59,090 bases of DNA from Patescibacteria group bacterium (GTDB lineage Bacteria; Patescibacteriota; Patescibacteriia; Patescibacteriales; GWC2-42-12). Of this stretch, positions 5,830 through 12,567 are shown piece after piece (positions within the stretch are counted from its first letter, which is position 1; each line of letters starts with the position of its first letter). Position numbers and translations under genes: made by a program. The notes under the pieces were generated by a model. It made no database searches, was not told the origin of the DNA, and was given only the letters and a program-made list of their open reading frames with translations. The stretch covers positions 1-59,090 of the forward strand of contig JBAZRI010000006.1 of NCBI GenBank assembly GCA_041662965.1, read 5' to 3'.

Positions 5830-6681
5830 TTATTCCAGCGGACTTACTATCTCTCTTAATTTATTATTCGCCACTTTGGTATAGATCTGCGTGGTTTCCA
5901 GCCGCGCGTGGCCCAATAGCTCCTGTATATACCTTATATCAGTTCCGCTTTCAAGTAAATGAGTGGCGAAACTGTGGCGCAGGCTATGCGCGGATATATT
6001 GGGCTTTACTTTAGCCAAGCGCGCCGCCTCGCCCACTATTTTTTGAATTGTGCGCACGGTTAATTTTGTTCCGGCGGGCTGGCTTTCAAATAAAAAAGTC
6101 AGCGGCTGATATTCCAGTAAATATTTTTCAATATTTCTTAAAGTCTGATCGGAAACTATCGTTATCCTGTCTTTGGCGCCTTTGCCATGCCTGACCGTAA
6201 TAATCCTGCGGAAAAAATCAATATCATTGATTTTCAGATCAACCGCTTCGCTGACTCGGAGCCCTGAACCGAATAATATTTGGATCATCAATTTATGCTT
6301 AATATTATCCAAAACGTTTATCATCATTACTACTTCATTTTTACTAAGCACAACCGGAAGCTTTTTTTCGCTTTTTGGCCGCTTAATTCCGATTTTTGAA
6401 ATAAAAAAACTCCTTTGCAATACGCCTTCGTAATAAAATTTGAAAGAATTGATGGCTAAATTAACGGTTGATGATGATTTACCGAGATTAAACAAACAAT
6501 CAATATAATCCCGCAAGTCTTCGGAGTTTATCTCTCTCGGGCTTTTATTTGCAAATCTAAGCAATTCTTTGTTATAATAAAGATAAGCTTGAATAGTTTT
6601 CGGGCTGAAATTGCGTATCCTCATTTCCCGAGCTAAATTAAACATCGGATCCTTGCTTGGATATTGATAATTTCCGTTCAT
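5830..6681 (-). CDS. tyrosine recombinase, IntI-like termini but Xer-sized (candidate cassette-array integrase)
   Basis: R...HxxR...Y catalytic set (GLRVSE, HSLRHSFATHLL, LGHARLETTQIYTKV). SAM-like N-domain (FSPKTIQAYLYYNKELLRF). C-terminal ...REIVSPLE resembles the IntI tail ...VRSPLD. The segment between GKGAKDR and HSLRH is only about 60 aa. Confidence 0.85.
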   Translation of the reverse strand: MNGNYQYPSKDPMFNLAREMRIRNFSPKTIQAYLYYNKELLRFANKSPREINSEDLRDYIDCLFNLGKSSSTVNLAINSFKFYYEGVLQRSFFISKIGIKRPKSEKKLPVVLSKNEVVMMINVLDNIKHKLMIQILFGSGLRVSEAVDLKINDIDFFRRIITVRHGKGAKDRITIVSDQTLRNIEKYLLEYQPLTFLFESQPAGTKLTVRTIQKIVGEAARLAKVKPNISAHSLRHSFATHLLESGTDIRYIQELLGHARLETTQIYTKVANNKLREIVSPLE

Positions 6682-6747
6682 AAACGGTTCTGGTTAGAAA
6701 TTTATATTATAATTTTAACTAATTTTAAATAATTAATCAACAAGTTC

Positions 6748-6767
6748 GCATATAACTAGTTATACGC
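6748..6767. other. attI-like core: near-perfect 20-bp palindrome ending in the first GTTATAC box
   Basis: gcatataactagttatacgc (18/20 self-complementary), readable as 7-bp inverted arms around ACTAGT. Lies 67 bp from the recombinase start, at the left boundary of cassette 1. Confidence 0.45.
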
Positions 6768-6874
6768 CATTTTGAAAAGCCCCCTTTATTTTTTTAATAA
6801 TTTTGGCAATTCTTTTTGGGGTCGAAGTATAACTGGAATTTATAGATAAGTATTAATAAATTAATATTAAAATT

Positions 6875-7321
6875 ATGAAAGAACCAACAATGCCAGGGAT
6901 GGAAAATAAAGGAGAGAAAAAATCCTGGGAAGATTTATCAAAAGTAGAAAAAACAGCTGAAGGTTATAAAGCTAACAGTAGATTTATTAGATATGAAATC
7001 TTAAAACAGTTAGGAGAGCAAATGGTAAATATGGCTGAAACATTTAAAGATGAAAGAACCTCAATGGACGAGAAGGCTAATGGATTGCATATAACTGACA
7101 GAGTACATGTTCAAATTCCAATGGATGAAAAATATTCTCTTGGAAATAATTTTAGTTTAAAAGAATTTGAATCTTTCGATCTAAATTTACCTGAAAGATT
7201 TATTAAGTTTATTGAAAGCGGACAATTAGACGAAATTGGATTCGAAAACGAGGCTGGTTACAAGGTTAGCGCTACCCTAGAAGGTGATAATTTAATTATA
7301 AAAAATGAAGGAGCTTTCTAA
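6875..7321 (+). CDS. hypothetical protein (cassette 1)
   Basis: 148-aa ORF with no motif I recognise; acidic, no TM segment; flanked by the 54-nt inverted repeat 6759-6812 / 7325-7378. Confidence 0.55.
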   Translation: MKEPTMPGMENKGEKKSWEDLSKVEKTAEGYKANSRFIRYEILKQLGEQMVNMAETFKDERTSMDEKANGLHITDRVHVQIPMDEKYSLGNNFSLKEFESFDLNLPERFIKFIESGQLDEIGFENEAGYKVSATLEGDNLIIKNEGAF

Positions 7322-7371
7322 AATGAATTGCCAAAATTAAATACACTAATGTAGGGGCTTTTCAAAACAGC

Positions 7372-7568
7372 GCATAACAACGCATATCTGGCTACGGGAA
7401 AATCACTCAAATATATTCAAAGGATGTGATTTTCCCTCCGCCCAAATTTTCATCCCTTAGTTTCGATGAAGATTTAGGTGGAGATAATTAAACAAAGCAT
7501 TTTCTGAAATCAAAGGTTCATCCTGTTAAATCGGGATGAAAACTTCAGATGATGCGTGAACGTTAGAC
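7372..7568 (+). other. attC-like site 1 (long, about 197 bp)
   Basis: R'' GCATAAC, 2-nt spacer, cgcatatctg ... cagatgatgcg, 5-nt spacer (tgaac), R' GTTAGAC. The interior holds three local hairpins (gggaaaatcac/gtgattttccc; ttcatc/gatgaa; tctgaa..ttcatcc/ggatgaa..ttcaga). Confidence 0.6.
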
Positions 7569-7604
7569 GAAATTTATTTTTAATTCCCTTTAATACTTAC
7601 GCTT

Positions 7605-8192
7605 ATGAAAATAGCAATCATATCAGACATTCACGACAACTTTCATAATATTATTCTGACCTTGAAAGATATTAAAAAGCGAAAGGTCGATCAAATTATT
7701 TTTCTTGGCGATTTTATCAATAACGGAATAGCCAAGGTTCTTGCGGAATCACCAATTCCAATTTTTGCCATTTGGGGAAATAATGATGGTGATAAAACAA
7801 TGATTACCAAAACATCGCTGAGTGAAAAAAGTAATTTAACCGTAAGTGAAAATATTTACGATTTTTTGGAGTTTGATAACAGAAAAATTTTTATAACCCA
7901 TTATCCAGATTTGGCTAAGCCAATGGCAAAAACTGGAATTTACGACGCAGTATTTTATGGGCATAATCATTTGAAAAACGAAGATAAAATCGGCGACTGT
8001 TTAGTAGTTAACCCTGGTGAGATATCTGCCCACAAAACTGGTGTGGCAACTTTTGTGATTTACGATACCAAGAAAAATAATATTGATTTCATTGAGTTGA
8101 AAAACTCCGTGACTTGGAAAACGAAAGTTGTCGATGAATATATAAAAACTTCCACGTTTAAATTTAGTAAGTCTAAACGCCACCAGTATTAA
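7605..8192 (+). CDS. YfcE/MJ0936-type metallophosphoesterase (cassette 2)
   Basis: MKIAIISDIHDN..., GDFINNG, WGNNDGD, GHNH motifs of calcineurin-like phosphoesterases. Confidence 0.8.
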   Translation: MKIAIISDIHDNFHNIILTLKDIKKRKVDQIIFLGDFINNGIAKVLAESPIPIFAIWGNNDGDKTMITKTSLSEKSNLTVSENIYDFLEFDNRKIFITHYPDLAKPMAKTGIYDAVFYGHNHLKNEDKIGDCLVVNPGEISAHKTGVATFVIYDTKKNNIDFIELKNSVTWKTKVVDEYIKTSTFKFSKSKRHQY

Positions 8193-8334
8193 AGGGAATT
8201 AAAAATAAACTCAAGGGGGGCGCTGCGCTTTTGCCCCGCTCATTATTAATAAATTCACATATAGGAAAGCGGGGCAAACCCTCGCCTAACAACGCGATAA
8301 GCGGAAAAGTCCTCAGCTCGGACTTTTCGCAAAT

Positions 8335-8363
8335 TTGACTTATTTTTTATTTAACAGTAAAAT
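8335..8363 (+). promoter_or_regulatory. sigma70-like promoter for hicBA
   Basis: TTGACT (8335-8340), 17 nt, TAAAAT (8358-8363), 21 nt upstream of the hicB ATG; overlaps the inner inverted repeat. Confidence 0.45.
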
Positions 8364-8384
8364 AACTGCATAAACTATAAAAAT

Positions 8385-8603
8385 ATGCGTAAAATAGACC
8401 TAAAATCAGTAGTTTGGAAAGAGGGCAAACATTATGTTTCTCAATGTTTAGAAGTTGACGTTTCCAGCTTCGGAAAAACCAAAAAAGAAGCCTTAGCTAT
8501 GCTACAAGAAGCATTGCAATTATATTTTGAAGATATTCCTGTTCCAAAAATGGCTGAGGTAAAAAATCCGATTATCGCTTCGGTTAAGCTTCAATATGCC
8601 TAA
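8385..8603 (+). CDS. hicB: HicB-family antitoxin
   Basis: 72 aa. The WKEGKHYVSQCLEVDVSSFGKTKKEALAMLQEALQLYFE pattern is typical of HicB/UPF0150. Overlaps the downstream toxin gene by 8 nt. Confidence 0.75.
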   Translation: MRKIDLKSVVWKEGKHYVSQCLEVDVSSFGKTKKEALAMLQEALQLYFEDIPVPKMAEVKNPIIASVKLQYA

Positions 8604-8817
8604 ACCTTATCCACTTCGACTCATACTGAAAGTCCTTCTTAACAAGGGCTTCTTTTTTGTTTCACAAAATGGCTCGCACGCTAAGTATCGTTGTCATCAC
8701 AACCCAGAATTAACCGTCATTATTCCAATGCACGGCAAAGAAGTGCTTTATGGCACTTTTAGGTCTATTTTACGCCAAGCAAAATTACAGCTTAGCGATT
8801 TTGATAATAAAAAATAA
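8596..8817 (+). CDS. hicA: HicA-family mRNA interferase toxin
   Basis: 73 aa; LLNKGFFFVSQNGSHAKYR...IIPMHGKEVLYGTFRSILRQA matches the HicA/YcfA pattern including the catalytic His region. Confidence 0.75.
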   Translation: MPKPYPLRLILKVLLNKGFFFVSQNGSHAKYRCHHNPELTVIIPMHGKEVLYGTFRSILRQAKLQLSDFDNKK

Positions 8818-8875
8818 GTCAAACTTCGCTTATCGGTATACGTTAGGCGAAATAAAAAAACAAATTATAAAATAT

Positions 8876-9247
8876 ATGGAAAAACCAATTTATGAACATC
8901 CTGAGGATACCGCATCGGATTTGATGAAAAATGATTATCTAAACGAATATCTTACATTTAATAGGCTACTTTACGATGAAGGCAGCAAATATAAAAAACC
9001 GCCTCTTGCTCCGAGAGGTTTTTCTCAAAGATATCCAAATATGACATTCAGCGGCCTGCCTTTTAAGATTTCAGAAATAGATAGACAAAAAATTGAAGAA
9101 CTAGATAAATTGTCTGTCGAGGCTAATCGTTTATTAAATGAAACGCCTTCAGACACAAATGCGCTATTAAAAATAGTTATTCTGGTTGCAGAAATATGCG
9201 GCAGGCCTGACTTTGCAAATAACTTTAGGGGAGGTGCCAAGGAATAA
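8876..9247 (+). CDS. hypothetical protein (cassette 3)
   Basis: The track ORF 8750-9247 runs across hicA and the GTTAGGC core. The internal ATG at 8876 (MEKPIYEHPED...) lies just inside the cassette boundary, so it is taken as the start. Confidence 0.5.
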   Translation: MEKPIYEHPEDTASDLMKNDYLNEYLTFNRLLYDEGSKYKKPPLAPRGFSQRYPNMTFSGLPFKISEIDRQKIEELDKLSVEANRLLNETPSDTNALLKIVILVAEICGRPDFANNFRGGAKE

Positions 9248-9263
9248 TTTGTTTTTTTACATC

Positions 9264-9350
9264 GCCTAACACGCGATATCCGCAAGAGCTAAAGCCACAT
9301 TTCAATTTGCTTCGCTTCATTGAAATGTCGGATATCGCGAAACGTTAAGT
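9264..9350 (+). other. attC-like site 3 (canonical size, 87 bp)
   Basis: R'' GCCTAAC, ac, gcgatatccg, bulge, acatttcaat/attgaaatgt stem, cggatatcgc, gaaac, R' GTTAAGT. Unequal spacers (2 vs 5 nt), as in attC sites. Confidence 0.7.
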
Positions 9351-9382
9351 GAAATTTTAAAGAAATATTTTTGTTATTTTAC

Positions 9383-9530
9383 AAAAAAACGACCTCTTTT
9401 GTGGGTGGGTCGTCATAGCTTCATTGAAGCAACCTCTGTTTTTTTACGAAGCTAGCCCTTCCCCTAGATTTAACCGGTGAATCCAGAGGCAATCCGACCT
9501 CCTCGGACGGCTAACTTTTCCGAGTATTTA
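9383..9530 (-). ncRNA. candidate about 145-nt structured RNA in ORF-less cassette 4
   Basis: Minus strand: TTGACA (9563-9558), 17 nt, TAAATT (9540-9535) upstream. Intrinsic terminator acgacc...ggtcgt plus U-run at 9413-9383. Internal stems uccga/ucgga, ccucug/cagagg, gcuuc/gaagc. No ORF of 40 aa or more. Confidence 0.3.
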
Positions 9531-9595
9531 TAATAATTTATATTATCCATTATAAAATGTCAAGATTTAATATATACAAAAATATTTCTTTAAAA

Positions 9596-9667
9596 CTCAG
9601 AGGGTCGCTGCGCTTTCTTTTGCCCCTATATTTTAGTATAATTACATTAAGAAATTACAAGCCTAAA
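9596..9667 (+). other. degenerate terminal attC remnant / shared pre-R'' module
   Basis: ctcagagggtcgctgcgctttcttttgcccc... ends in GCCTAAA. The first about 30 nt match 8210-8238 (ctcaaggggggcgctgcgcttttgcccc), which precedes GCCTAAC at 8284. No downstream GTTRRRY partner was found. Confidence 0.4.
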
Positions 9668-9704
9668 TAACCGGTAATTTTTATAAACTAGAAAAAAATA
9701 TCTG

Positions 9705-9944
9705 ATGAAAAATATACAGCATTATTCTAAAGAATCTTGGCCAAGGTCGCTAACAAAAATGATCACTTATAGAATAGCCATTCTTATCCTTGATTTTACC
9801 ATCGTCTATTTACTGACGGGAAAAATTGAGATTGCTTTAGGCTTTATGGTAGCCAGCAATATTTACACCAGCATAGGCTATTACATCCACGAAAGAGCCT
9901 GGGATCGCGTCAAATGGGGAAAAATCAAGCAGGCTAAAAAATAA
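9705..9944 (+). CDS. DUF2061-like small membrane protein
   Basis: 79 aa, two TM helices, HERAWDRVKWG C-terminal motif. Confidence 0.55.
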   Translation: MKNIQHYSKESWPRSLTKMITYRIAILILDFTIVYLLTGKIEIALGFMVASNIYTSIGYYIHERAWDRVKWGKIKQAKK

Positions 9945-9973: not shown

Positions 9974-11068
9974 ATGAAAAAAATTAATATCGGCATACTG
10001 TTTGGCGGTAAATCCGCCGAACACGAAGTCTCTCTGCAGTCGGCAAAAAATATTTTTGAAGCGATTGATAAAAAAAAATACAATCCTATTTTAATCGGCA
10101 TTGATAAATCCGGCAAATGGCTGTTAAGCGACAGCTCTAAATTCCTGCTTAACGCGGACAACCCCAAATTAATAAGGCTCAATCAAGCCAGCGACCACGT
10201 GGCTTTAGTGCCTCAAAGCGGCGGCAAAATATCAAATTTATTCCACAAAGGCAAGAAAAAATCCATTGACGTCATTTTCCCGATCTTGCACGGCCCTTTC
10301 GGCGAAGACGGCACGGTCCAAGGCTTATTAAAGCTCGCTAATATTCCTTTCGTCGGCGCCAGCGTTCTAGGCTCGGCGGTCGGCATGGATAAAGACGTAA
10401 TGAAGCGCTTATTGCGCGACGCCGGCCTGCCTATCGGAAAATTTATCACTCTCAATTCAGGCGATAAAATTCCCGGATATAAAACCATCGCGGAAAAAAT
10501 CGGCATGCCCTGCTTCATAAAACCGGCTAACATGGGCTCGTCGGTCGGCGTGAGTAAAGTCAATAGCCAAGGCGAATATTTAAAGGCCATAAAAAACGCC
10601 TGGCAATATGACACAAAAATTTTAATAGAAGAATATATCAAGGGCAGAGAAATTGAATGTTCGGTTTTAGGCAACGCCAACCCTATCGCCTCCGTACCCG
10701 GCGAAGTGACCCCCAGCCATGAATTTTATTCTTATGAAGCCAAATATCTTGATGAAAAAGGCGCGATTTTAGAAATTCCCGCAAAACTGCCCAGCCAAAC
10801 CATAAAAAAAATCCAGGCTTTAGCCGTAAAAACGTTTAAAACTTTATCTTGCGAAGGTCCGGGCCGAGTTGACTTTTTTCTCAAAAAAAACGGGGATATC
10901 ATCGTCAACGAGATTAATACCATGCCGGGCTTTACAAAAATAAGCATGTATCCGAAATTATGGGAAGCCAGCGGCATAGCTTATGCCGAGCTGATTGACA
11001 AATTAATTCAACTAGCAATTGAAAGATTTAACAAAGAGCAAAATTTAAAAACAAATTACGTTAAATAA
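9974..11068 (+). CDS. ddl: D-alanine--D-alanine ligase
   Basis: GILFGGKSAEHEVSL N-terminus, ATP-grasp core, EINTMPGFT C-terminal motif. Confidence 0.92.
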   Translation: MKKINIGILFGGKSAEHEVSLQSAKNIFEAIDKKKYNPILIGIDKSGKWLLSDSSKFLLNADNPKLIRLNQASDHVALVPQSGGKISNLFHKGKKKSIDVIFPILHGPFGEDGTVQGLLKLANIPFVGASVLGSAVGMDKDVMKRLLRDAGLPIGKFITLNSGDKIPGYKTIAEKIGMPCFIKPANMGSSVGVSKVNSQGEYLKAIKNAWQYDTKILIEEYIKGREIECSVLGNANPIASVPGEVTPSHEFYSYEAKYLDEKGAILEIPAKLPSQTIKKIQALAVKTFKTLSCEGPGRVDFFLKKNGDIIVNEINTMPGFTKISMYPKLWEASGIAYAELIDKLIQLAIERFNKEQNLKTNYVK

Positions 11069-11079
11069 AAAACGACAAA

Positions 11080-12567
11080 ATGAAAATTTATAAATATATT
11101 TTGGAAATAACGGTCTTCGCCTGCGGAACCGTTGTTATGATATTTGAGCTCGTCGGTTCAAGAGTCCTCGGCCCGTATTTCGGCACCTCTATTTTTGTCT
11201 GGACAAGCTTAATCGGCATTATTTTAGGCAGCCTTAGCCTCGGCTACTATCTTGGCGGTAAAATCGCGGATAAAAAAACCAGCCTAAGCGGCTTATCGCT
11301 GATTATTCTTTTAGCGGCAATCTCTATCGGCTTAACGATTCTAATTAAAGATTTTTTACTGGCTGTTTCGCAAGCCAGCTTTACGGATATCCGCCTGGCC
11401 GCGGTTTTAGCGTCCTTGATTTTATTCTCGCCCGCCAGCATGCTCTTAGGCATGGTTTCTCCTTACGCTGTTAAGTTAAAAATGGAAAATTTAAATACCT
11501 CGGGCAGAACCGTAGGCAATCTTTACGCCATCTCCACGGTTGGCAGTATTATCGGAACGTTTTTATCCGGTTTTTACTTAATCCCGCGCTTTGGCACAAA
11601 CAAACTCTTAATTATTTTATCAATAATATTAATTATCGTTTCTTTGGCGCTGGCTGTAAAAAAATATACTAAAACAAAATTGCTTGTTTTTATTATTGCC
11701 GTCGTTAGCTGGTCGGCAATTAGCGGGCTTGATGGCCTAGCTCTAAAAAATGGCTTTATAGACGTTGACACGGCCTACAACCGCATTTGGATATATAATC
11801 GCCTTGAACCGAATACAAACAGACTTACTAAAATAATGGGGATAAACAACGAAAATCATTCATCAATGTTTTTGGATAGCGATGAATTGGTAAATGAATA
11901 CACGAAATATTATCATTTAGCCAAGCACTTTAATCCCAATTTTAAAGCCACTTTGATGCTCGGCGGCGCCGGCTATTCATATCCAAAAGATTTTTTACTC
12001 AAATATCCCGAGGCCATGATTGATGTGGTTGAAATTGACCAAAAAATCACCGACCTGGCGAAAAAATACTTTAGGCTGAAAGAAAATCCCAGGCTGAATA
12101 TTTTCCACGAAGACGGCAGGGTATTTTTAAATAAAACGCGAAAAAAATACGACGTAATTTTCGGCGATGCTTTTAGCTCGCGCTATTCTTTGCCTTATCA
12201 GCTAACAACCAGAGAAGCTGTGCAAAAAAAATATGACATTTTAAACGATGGCGGGGCCGTCATTTTAAACATCATTTCGGCAATAGACGGCGAAAAAGGC
12301 GAATTTTTAAGAGCCGAATACGCTACCTACAAAAATATTTTCCCGCAAGTTTATCTATTCCCGGTTAGCCGGCCAAACAATGGAAGCGCGGTGCAAAATA
12401 TAATATTAGTGGCCCTAAAATCTAAATCGGAACCAAAATTTGATAGCGCTAATCCGGAATTAAATGGATATTTAGAGCATTTATGGAAAAAAGAAATTGA
12501 TACGGATATACCGATTTTAACCGATGATTACGCGCCGGTAGATTACTATATCAGTAAGGCAATTTAG
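11080..12567 (+). CDS. membrane-anchored spermidine synthase-like protein
   Basis: Multi-TM N-terminal half, then a class I MTase-like spermidine synthase fold (LMLGGAGYSYP...DVIFGDAF). Confidence 0.65.
   Translation: MKIYKYILEITVFACGTVVMIFELVGSRVLGPYFGTSIFVWTSLIGIILGSLSLGYYLGGKIADKKTSLSGLSLIILLAAISIGLTILIKDFLLAVSQASFTDIRLAAVLASLILFSPASMLLGMVSPYAVKLKMENLNTSGRTVGNLYAISTVGSIIGTFLSGFYLIPRFGTNKLLIILSIILIIVSLALAVKKYTKTKLLVFIIAVVSWSAISGLDGLALKNGFIDVDTAYNRIWIYNRLEPNTNRLTKIMGINNENHSSMFLDSDELVNEYTKYYHLAKHFNPNFKATLMLGGAGYSYPKDFLLKYPEAMIDVVEIDQKITDLAKKYFRLKENPRLNIFHEDGRVFLNKTRKKYDVIFGDAFSSRYSLPYQLTTREAVQKKYDILNDGGAVILNIISAIDGEKGEFLRAEYATYKNIFPQVYLFPVSRPNNGSAVQNIILVALKSKSEPKFDSANPELNGYLEHLWKKEIDTDIPILTDDYAPVDYYISKAI

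Follow-up and report, generated by a model that had tools for sequence, protein, structure and literature searches.

An integron is defined by an integrase with an I2 insertion, which is held to have enabled the recombination of folded single strands (PMC4792948, PMC7790495); in the integrase IntI, the I2 helix recognizes extrahelical bases and blocks second-strand exchange (PMC4792948). That integrons arose from Xer recombinases is a hypothesis for which no extant intermediate is known (PMC4792948, PMC7790495), and Escudero et al. (PMC4792948), who posed the chicken-and-egg problem of I2 and attC, speculated on an ancestor that combined Xer with integrative mobile elements exploiting Xer (IMEX). 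One such element, CTXphi, integrates through XerCD at dif (Val et al. 2005, as related in PMC4792948). The defining architecture of dif sites is 11-6-11 bp, and the archaeal dif lies at the terminus and not beside xerA (PMC2958812). Described integrons include the sedentary ones of Vibrio, Xanthomonas and Treponema and those of archaea (Ghaly et al. 2022, PMC9668308); the archaeal study requires the I2 domain and does not mention the Candidate Phyla Radiation (CPR), and IntegronFinder 2.0 reports no such phylum. Here we describe a recombinase gene and an adjoining array of small genes set between palindromic sites in a window of 59,090 nucleotides (nt), the whole stretch analyzed, from a Patescibacteria group bacterium (positions 1 to 59,090 of contig JBAZRI010000006.1, assembly GCA_041662965.1). 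The full-text literature, as far as its incomplete coverage goes and with a prior description elsewhere possible, holds no description of integron or attC arrays in Patescibacteria, CPR, Parcubacteria, Saccharibacteria or Falkowbacteria, and the searchable literature holds no array in which Xer is combined with cassettes or hairpins.

The recombinase gene lies on the minus strand and the array runs away from it on the plus strand (Table 1). Each site has outer boxes, called R'' and R' after their integron counterparts, and inner boxes, L'' and L'; a separate site beside the recombinase gene, J1, heads the array. An earlier inspection of the letters without database searches (the sequence-only reading) had taken the locus for an integron-like platform. 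Our preferred reading, to which we give a probability of about 0.7, is an integron-like cassette platform with an Xer-type enzyme that joins folded hairpin sites to a dif-like attI by recombination. The integron interpretation captures the logic of the locus but assigns it to a class to which, under the accepted definition, it does not belong. Its cassette platform with integron logic, divergent recombinase and conserved insertion site next to the gene all stand, and what falls is the identity of the integrase.

In profile searches, the recombinase scores 242 bits on NF040815 (recomb_XerA_Arch, "site-specific tyrosine recombinase/integron integrase"), above the cutoff of 220. On the integron integrase model TIGR02249, which it matches in two stretches, it falls short (215.8 bits against 265), and it stays below the cutoffs of NF011946 (142 against 435), XerD (199 bits) and XerC (193 bits); PF13495 and PF00589 both match. 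The closest solved structure is P. abyssi XerA (4a8e, 1.3e-45), which aligns in one continuous piece and without gaps in the active-site regions. The alignment with V. cholerae IntI4 (VchIntIA, 2a3v; 2e-44) is broken in two, residues 180-210 standing opposite IntI4 173-245, so that about 42 residues are absent at the IntI-specific I2 region around patch III. Homologues (252-295 aa) number in the thousands in Patescibacteria at 60-85% identity, and the best 120 are all 212-295 aa long, too short for I2. They are labeled Falkowbacteria, Parcubacteria or Patescibacteria group, with Candidatus Falkowbacteria the closest, which bears out the CPR-like host proposed by the sequence-only reading. From these matches the recombinase is predicted to be an Xer-family (XerA/"Cand"-type) enzyme and not IntI, and it matches the Xer-related subgroup that Smyshlyaev et al. 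(PMC8138268) call "Cand". On its 3' side the neighborhood is syntenic across genomes (GT2-GT2-NTP_transferase-PfkB-PTAC-Fpg, GT2 being glycosyltransferase genes), while the 5' side differs per genome, and the gene is probably inherited vertically within this conserved neighborhood. The GT2-GT2 synteny lies on one side of the locus and ddl on the other, in line with the setting given by the sequence-only reading. Neither a second recombinase nor IntI is present in the 59-kb window. On some metagenome contigs (L057-L060 and L062; other loci are likewise given by number), only the final ~26 recombinase codons lie mid-contig at 92-95% identity, and these 3' fragments may be gene remnants or rearrangement scars.

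J1 combines the position of an attI with the build of a dif site. Alignment of the recombinase-upstream regions of 12 genome loci gave the 28-mer consensus AAGTTCGCATAT-AACTWG-TTATGCGAAAT, about 75 nt from the start codon, a distance 5' of the gene that is kept across loci with recombinase identities of 52-85%. The left arm and the centre stay constant in all orthologous loci, and the right arm varies along with the first cassette, the right half of J1 matching the R'' side of that cassette; the gap between ..ATAT and G|TT is always 5 nt. In the window, the box GTTATAC at 6759 consists of the final base of the J1 centre and the first six of the right arm, and crossover would fall at G6759|T6760. 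The site thus adjoins the gene with its junction at G|TT, as attI does, here and in L001-L011, L017, L019, L024 and others, and it has the 28 bp, the ~11-bp inverted arms and the 6-bp centre of dif. We take both arms to resemble the E. coli dif sequence. The single-recombinase Xer systems, XerS/difSL (PMC1914069), XerA/dif of archaea (PMC2958812), XerH/difH and "Cand" (PMC8138268), share the protein family and the 11-6-11 site, and XerS also shares the position of the site directly 5' of its gene (PMC1914069); unlike the present locus, none has been described with an adjacent array of hairpin-bounded cassettes. The sequence-only reading had set against itself the case of an enzyme grouping with Xer and a dif-like site elsewhere, and half of this is what we found: the enzyme is Xer-like, and the dif-like site is the array head itself.

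These features raise the possibility that J1 is the chromosomal dif, the enzyme a housekeeping dimer resolvase and the cassettes selfish mini-IMEX that hijack Xer, like CTXphi, VGJphi and TLCphi in Vibrio. The canonical architecture of J1 (as defined in PMC2958812), the near-universal and syntenic occurrence of the gene in these lineages, J1 sites without cassettes in some genomes (L004, L006 and L008), the absence of a second recombinase from the window and the precedent of difSL immediately 5' of xerS in streptococci (PMC1914069) all speak for it. We nevertheless consider it the less probable account. The GC skew has the same sign on either side of J1 in the window, L017, L019, L027 and L011, so J1 does not lie where a terminus dif would be expected, although with 5-50 kb per side this is weak evidence. 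The units carry no replication or phage genes, and co-oriented single genes with shared site families are the signature of integron cassettes and not of IMEX. This account differs from the preferred one mainly in who benefits, and the mechanism would be identical.

Some genomes (L003 1-232, L016 1-268, L005, L007 and L010) have, after J1, GC-rich palindromic mini-units without open reading frames (ORFs) instead of gene cassettes. About 125 bp past J1 in these genomes lies an inverted, near-perfect dif-like site, TTTCGCATAT-CCCGA-G|TTGTGC, and the L003 and L016 contigs stop just past it. A strand switch near 50.8 kb of the window was considered as oriC and rejected; neither dnaA nor dnaN is there, only sugar transferase and dehydratase genes.

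The eight boxes listed by the sequence-only reading are all where it placed them and alternate strictly: GTTATAC (6759), GCATAAC (7372), GTTAGAC (7562), GCCTAAC (8284), GTTAGGC (8842), GCCTAAC (9264), GTTAAGT (9344) and GCCTAAA (9661). Its consensus, GTTRRRY/RYYYAAC, does not hold for GTTATAC (T at R) or GCATAAC (A at Y). The boxes alone prove nothing, since the 12-mer GTTAGGCGAAAT, with up to two mismatches, has 16 matches in the window against 11.5 expected and is not enriched; four of its five best matches fall within 7562-9355. We therefore dropped the 12-mer count as a statistic and used a composite grammar instead. At 39 loci, the left-arm motif together with a box occurs 87 times in 104 kb of array-side sequence versus 27 times in 198 kb on the opposite side, and the composite grammar is far beyond chance. 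With all sites read towards G|TT, an R' site has the left arm CTTCGNATAT, a spacer of 8 nt (rarely 7 or 9) that ends in WAC, and TTAGGCGAAAT after G|TT; an R'' site has the left arm NCNGNWTAT, a spacer of 5-6 nt, and TTAGGC followed by GATGT or GAGGG; J1 has its consensus arms and a spacer of 5 nt. The R' spacing is 8 nt in 19 of 25 non-J1 sites and 7 or 9 in the others. Complementary L'' and L' boxes with unequal spacers had been proposed, and both the asymmetry and the covariation of the arms hold, with corrected counts: the gap measures 1-2 nt at R'' and 4-5 nt at R', which leaves the R' strand with a constant ~3 additional nt directly before G|TT. By this grammar, a folded R''...R' pair would reproduce the left arm, the spacing and the start of the right arm of J1. 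Because the J1 left-arm motif recurs as the L arm in all internal sites, one binding protein is implied.

The same grammar recurs 5' of orthologous recombinase genes on more than 10 other Patescibacteria contigs. Internal sites with different cargo lie upstream of the gene at genome loci L001, L002, L011, L017, L019 and L021 and at metagenome loci L024, L027, L029, L034 and others. The reading with the best support is of an Xer-type platform, I2-less and integron-like, that is widespread in Patescibacteria. A scan of viral contigs with the 14-mer ACGTTAGGCGAAAT gave 120 single matches, of which 119 lack the left-arm motif and are chance; it provided no evidence for phage vehicles. The sole remaining match, L070 (IMG/VR, 11600-11900), is a GC-rich "viral" contig from an unrelated organism with canonical-looking attC palindromes, GTCTAAC-CACCGCATGAAGCGAACCCTGA ... 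TCAGGGTTCGCTTATGCGGAC-GTTAGGC, plus a further GCCTAAC.

The inner arms of the sites covary. In an alignment of 15 sites including site 3, 93.9% of the L-box helix is paired and 7 of its 11 pairs show changes on both sides (compensatory changes); the covariation score is 0.282 versus 0.118 +/- 0.017 in shuffled alignments (0/500 as high) and at most 0.072 with the partners slid. With partners chosen by adjacency only (17 pairs), arm identity is 9.12 of 11 versus 7.15 when permuted (maximum 8.41, 0/10,000). Bottom-strand DNA folds of four small sites have z-scores of -3.1 to -5.0, and three of the four (87, 73 and 100 bp) are predicted to form the R box, a 3-nt bulge and the L stem; the prediction for the bottom strand of a 54-bp site in L019 does not give the proposed hairpin. 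For site 3, one of three whose bottom-strand fold the sequence-only reading had suggested as a check, the predicted structure has exactly these parts, with an 11-bp L stem (-20.3 kcal/mol, z = -3.7). Stability is predicted to be slightly higher for the bottom strands than for the top strands. A repeat search further found each unit bracketed by long, unit-specific inverted repeats that start at the boxes. One could read such palindromes as intergenic structural elements, terminators or repetitive extragenic palindromic (REP)-like sequences, with no role in recombination. They are intergenic and fold stably, and the region has 6 terminator-like elements versus 2.1 in shuffles. Yet in many genomes the palindromes are confined to the neighborhood of the recombinase gene, and the window has none in its remaining 55 kb; they share the motifs of the head site and a strand-specific asymmetry, and the units between them vary from genome to genome and strain to strain. 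We find this explanation scarcely credible.

The internal sites share with attC the R''-L''...L'-R' architecture of palindromes, the RYYYAAC...GTTRRRY outer boxes, the covarying inner boxes and the constant built-in asymmetry. The likeness to integrons extends to a recombinase gene divergent from co-oriented orphan cassettes, an insertion site adjoining that gene, a crossover that would lie at G|TT, R'' boxes that each match the 5' end of their own cassette, site families specific to a lineage, a toxin-antitoxin module and low GC (0.29-0.35 in arrays versus 0.34-0.47). Unlike an integron, the locus has a recombinase that lacks I2 and fails the IntI profile, a regular 11-6-11 dif-like palindrome in place of attI, and a CPR host. 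Its asymmetry is a ~3-nt spacer surplus, whereas the L box of an integron attC carries two extrahelical bases. The sites have an 11-bp L stem, a 4x1 spacer loop and longer stems than attC; the ORF is enclosed by an outer stem of 20-45 bp, and some site loops of 440-940 bp contain genes (the 565-bp site of the window and 441- and 939-bp sites of L019). The attC sites of the sequence-only reading are therefore upheld as asymmetric palindromes and not as ordinary attC, the 565-bp one holding hicBA in its loop. A canonical integron, or a cluster of attC sites lacking an integrase (CALIN), served by a true IntI from another locus, the neighboring Xer gene being incidental, would account for R boxes of integron consensus (GTTAGGC/GCCTAAC), for sites of 54-131 bp, a size typical of attC, and for integron integrases being the second-best family of the recombinase. 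It would not account for arrays that begin at the same conserved gene-adjacent site in more than 10 genomes, for L arms that copy the J1 left arm, or for the geometry of stem and loop, and neither the window nor the length of the 120 best homologues gives any sign of IntI. We regard it as very improbable.

The position of exchange is indicated by the cassette ends. The better fit of R'' to the cassette's own 5' end, which had been seen for two cassettes (6/7 and 7/7), generalizes: in 12 of 14 cassettes the R'' box and its flank fit the own 5' end over the downstream hairpin partner (6.7 versus 4.1 of 10 positions). The own-end pairing is typically GTTAGGCGA-AA-TAA against GTTAGGCGA-TG-TAA, a perfect outer stem with a 2-nt mismatch (GAAAT/GATGT) that is conserved across own-end pairings. 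The own-end match and the behavior of J1 together place exchange at G|TT, which, for the core site of a tyrosine recombinase, would be the bottom-strand cleavage position where right arm and centre meet. J1 (AACTWG) and the internal sites (xxWACG) differ in their centres, and centre length differs by class, with 9 nt at R' sites versus 6-7 nt at R'' sites. Because of the difference in centres, a conventional exchange of both strands, for which the centres must be identical, is unlikely.

Array content varies between genomes, as the sequence-only reading had expected of syntenic loci and as integrons do: cargo differs in every locus compared, L019 having seven co-oriented orphan ORFs and L017 a methyltransferase plus orphans. 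Site families are common to different arrays, exactly box to box, at different positions. Site 1 belongs to a repeat family with box-to-box homology in L021/L022/L023 (83%), L026 and L183 (86%), and site 3 has homologues in L019 and L024. The contig terminates within 320 nt 5' of the recombinase gene in 16 of ~50 cases, as expected for a repeat-rich, strain-variable locus. A case of one cassette at different positions in L017, L024 and L029 was rejected, as BLAST found sharing to be limited to the site and the beginning of the unit after it. In L021 (2444-9257; also in L022), a type I restriction-modification system (HsdR, HsdM/S) stands directly past a one-cassette array, and the variable side of the recombinase gene may also collect defence genes.

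Strain-level rearrangement was seen in sample ERZ27249449, where two contigs (L183 and L187) more than 99.6% identical to the window are joined differently at site 1. L183 has the order recombinase-J1-ORF1, site 1, 240-aa ORF, and L187 has ParA-ParB-FecR-Ank-Mem_trans, site 1, ORF2-HicBA-ORF3-ddl; their site 1 copies are reciprocal hybrids of the window site and a homologous site. Cassette 1 is identical at 612 of 612 positions in L183, L184 and L185, and L184 and L188, from an independent run, support the window arrangement. These data indicate that the sites are recombination hotspots in nature. The exchange itself could be homologous recombination between repeat copies, or could mark a second cleavage position. 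We withdrew the view that L183 homology ends at the G|TT crossover, because L187 shows the reciprocal hybrids and the GTTAG edge is the end of the repeat family. The ParA-ParB-FecR-ankyrin-transporter segment and the 240-aa ORF are apparently joined via a hybrid site 1 (L183 1-2230 and L187 1-5000), and if L183 and L187 are assumed to be continuous this segment would fit an integrated element that bears partition genes.

The pdif modules of Acinetobacter plasmids (PMC7399989, PMC12907356), in which alternating Xer-type sites bound small modules including toxin-antitoxin modules, suggest another explanation: modules between double-stranded Xer sites in alternating orientation, with every box a crossover and two-strand exchange throughout. 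Strict alternation of the boxes fits this, as do the inverted repeats around intervals of either polarity, either of which can hold ORFs, the R''-to-R' intervals (the 197-bp element and the toxin-antitoxin module) common to arrays without their neighbors, and an L183/L187 exchange point away from G|TT. Several observations nonetheless make it improbable in our view. The arms of pdif sites are conserved protein-binding sequences within conserved 28-bp XerC/XerD sites, whereas here the arms covary pairwise and both arms and spacers differ between sites. The two site classes have different spacers, and their centre lengths are incompatible with double-stranded recombination between classes. The unit-specific inverted repeats run 20-45 nt past any 11-bp arm, and homology crosses R'' boxes (window 8207-8352 versus L001). 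All ORFs are co-oriented (5/5 in the window array, 7/7 in L019) with no inversion seen, and the array, anchored at the recombinase gene, lies in the chromosome. A shufflon or other invertible segments were also rejected, the ORFs being complete, unrelated and co-oriented.

On the cassette-platform reading, the recombinase gene would be transcribed away from J1, and J1 would be the insertion point. Each cassette would end in an imperfect palindrome, R''-L''...L'-R', that as single-stranded DNA (ssDNA) would form a hairpin mimicking J1. Its L box would copy the J1 left arm (TTCGNATAT) and its R box the start of the right arm (G|TTAGGC), with the spacing on the R'' strand equal to that of J1 and ~3 extra bases on the R' strand beside the cleavage point. 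In an excised cassette, the two own ends would pair and complete the right arm, leaving the conserved mismatch. The recombinase would swap the bottom strand only, at AA|C (top-strand G|TT), a folded site recombining either with J1 or with another folded site, and the junction would be resolved by replication, as in integron attI x attC and in CTXphi/XerCD recombination. Repeated rounds would build an array of promoter-poor, mostly orphan, co-oriented genes, and a HicAB pair in a site loop with its own promoter would stabilize it. We infer the ssDNA substrate, the choice of strand, the exchange of a single strand and this enzyme as catalyst; the recombinase may in addition have a housekeeping role. 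The CTXphi IMEX offers a close parallel, with an Xer lacking I2 and a folded single-stranded hairpin of two inverted half-sites that mimics dif, with which the sequence here is compatible, and with a dif-type target, one-strand exchange and replicative resolution, which would apply here as well. Unlike CTXphi, the units are gene cassettes without phage or replication genes in ordered multi-site arrays, the hairpins have conserved distortions where the CTX stem "mimics a ds-DNA molecule" (PMC4792948), and the target adjoins the recombinase gene instead of lying at a GC-skew switch.

Several points weigh against the cassette-platform reading. The recombinase lacks the I2 helix that, in IntI, reads extrahelical bases and prevents second-strand exchange. 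R'-to-R'' and R''-to-R' intervals are both flanked by unit-specific inverted repeats, and both can carry ORFs (the toxin-antitoxin pair in the window; 81- and 107-aa ORFs in L019), a symmetry of intervals that exceeds that of an integron. The sole mappable near-isogenic exchange is away from G|TT, next to the L'' arm at 7386-7400. The hairpin pairs in the 15-site alignment were partly picked by arm similarity, a bias for which the adjacency-only test corrects. The promoter scan did not rise above shuffles, so we claim neither a Pc promoter nor promoterless cassettes. Circles, excision and ssDNA intermediates are proposed from the sequence. The array looks like the long-hypothesized Xer-based forerunner or cousin of integrons. 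A bolder version, which we put forward only tentatively, is that it is a living "proto-integron", present in many Patescibacteria, an I2-less Xer, possibly the dimer resolvase of the cell itself, that captures ssDNA hairpin cassettes at a gene-adjacent dif-like attI, with integrons descended from such a system or parallel to it; it would then represent the intermediate stage postulated by Escudero et al. (PMC4792948) for the chicken-and-egg problem of attC and I2.

Table 1. Recombinase gene, head site, array units and 3' neighbors in the 59,090-nt window
Feature	Position	Strand	Description
Tyrosine recombinase, 283 aa	5830..6681	-	Xer/XerA-type, closely IntI-like, no I2 insertion
Head site J1	6743..6770	+	attI-like and dif-like; AGTTCGCATAT-AACTAG-TTATACGCCAT, 11 + 6 + 11 bp
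Cassette 1 body	6760..7371	+	Orphan ORF 6875-7321, 148 aa
Cassette 1 inverted repeats	6750-6783/7354-7387 and 6798-6817/7320-7339		79% and 95%; cassette-specific
Site 1, 197 bp	7372..7568	+	GCATAAC-A-ACGCATATCTG ... CAGATGATGCGT-GAAC-GTTAGAC; structured loop
Cassette 2 body	7563..8283	+	YfcE-family metallophosphoesterase (Metallophos_2), 7605-8192
Cassette 2 inverted repeat	7573-7597/8185-8209		Perfect, 25/25 nt
GC-rich element, ~75 nt	8207-8283		Directly 5' of R'' in cassette 2
Site 2, 565 bp	8284..8848	+	GCCTAAC-AA-CGCGATAAGCG ... CGCTTATCG-GTATAC-GTTAGGC
Site 2 loop genes	8385-8603; 8596-8817	+	hicB-like; hicA
Site 2 loop, extra stem repeats	8331-8351/8806-8826		95%, around the toxin-antitoxin pair
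Site 2 promoter-like sequence	8335-8363		TTGACT-17-TAAAAT
Cassette 3 body	8843..9263	+	Orphan ORF 8876-9247, 123 aa (ORF3)
Cassette 3 inverted repeat	8842-8868/9244-9270		27 nt, 93%; begins at the boxes, with the conserved AA/TG mismatch
Site 3, 87 bp	9264..9350	+	GCCTAAC-A-CGCGATATCCG ... CGGATATCGCG-AAAC-GTTAAGT
Terminal unit 4	9345..9667		Non-coding on the + strand; end of array
Terminal unit 4 inverted repeat	9355-9374/9576-9595		Perfect, 20/20 nt
GC-rich element, second copy	9596-9660		In terminal unit 4
Terminal unit 4, decayed R''	9661-9667		GCCTAAA; no L'' partner
DUF2061	9705-9944		3' of array
ddl	9974-11068		3' of array

The coordinates of the array are collected in Table 1. Of the four units counted by the sequence-only reading, three are cassettes and the fourth is a non-coding terminal unit; its list of cargo, orphan ORFs, a phosphoesterase and a toxin-antitoxin pair, was confirmed by family searches, which identify the pair as HicAB. 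ORF3 has only three homologues in 5.8 billion proteins, and the one with available context (L186) shows no sites. A homologous HicAB module, 69-73% identical, lies in the same kind of interval in L029. The 25-nt repeat of cassette 2 spans the stop codon of the phosphoesterase gene and most of its 5' untranslated region, so the ends of its mRNA could pair; the repeat could serve recombination, transcript stability or translation control.

The GC-rich element, CTCARGGG.CGCTGCGCTTTTGCCCC...GCGGGGCAAACCCTC, immediately precedes R'' boxes of the "GAGGG" type and could form either of two mutually exclusive hairpins. It is found twice in L001 as well (192-273 and 1042-1124), with 94-95% identity to the window. 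The minus strand of terminal unit 4 has a promoter-like TTGACA-17-TAAATT (9563-9535) and, ~150 nt 3' of it, a GC hairpin with a T run (around 9385-9410), which could bound a small RNA in 9380-9565; this candidate region has an RNA fold z-score of only -2.0 and no Rfam match. Rfam searches (the whole window at the gathering threshold, 6650-9750 at E<=1) and a tRNA/tmRNA scan gave nothing relevant, so neither the sites nor unit 4 correspond to a known RNA.

Standard tools would miss the array or at best call it a CALIN, because its integrase does not pass the IntI model. The array also accounts for CPR assemblies that break beside the recombinase gene. If the cassette-platform reading is true, cassettes can be captured without I2, and the locus would be a system for testing how DNA structure by itself, in the form of the 3-nt bulge and the AA/TG mismatch, enforces the choice of strand and limits exchange to one strand. 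It would offer a compact recombination system, possibly light on host factors, and would give CPR bacteria a gene-acquisition device where none is known for their reduced genomes.

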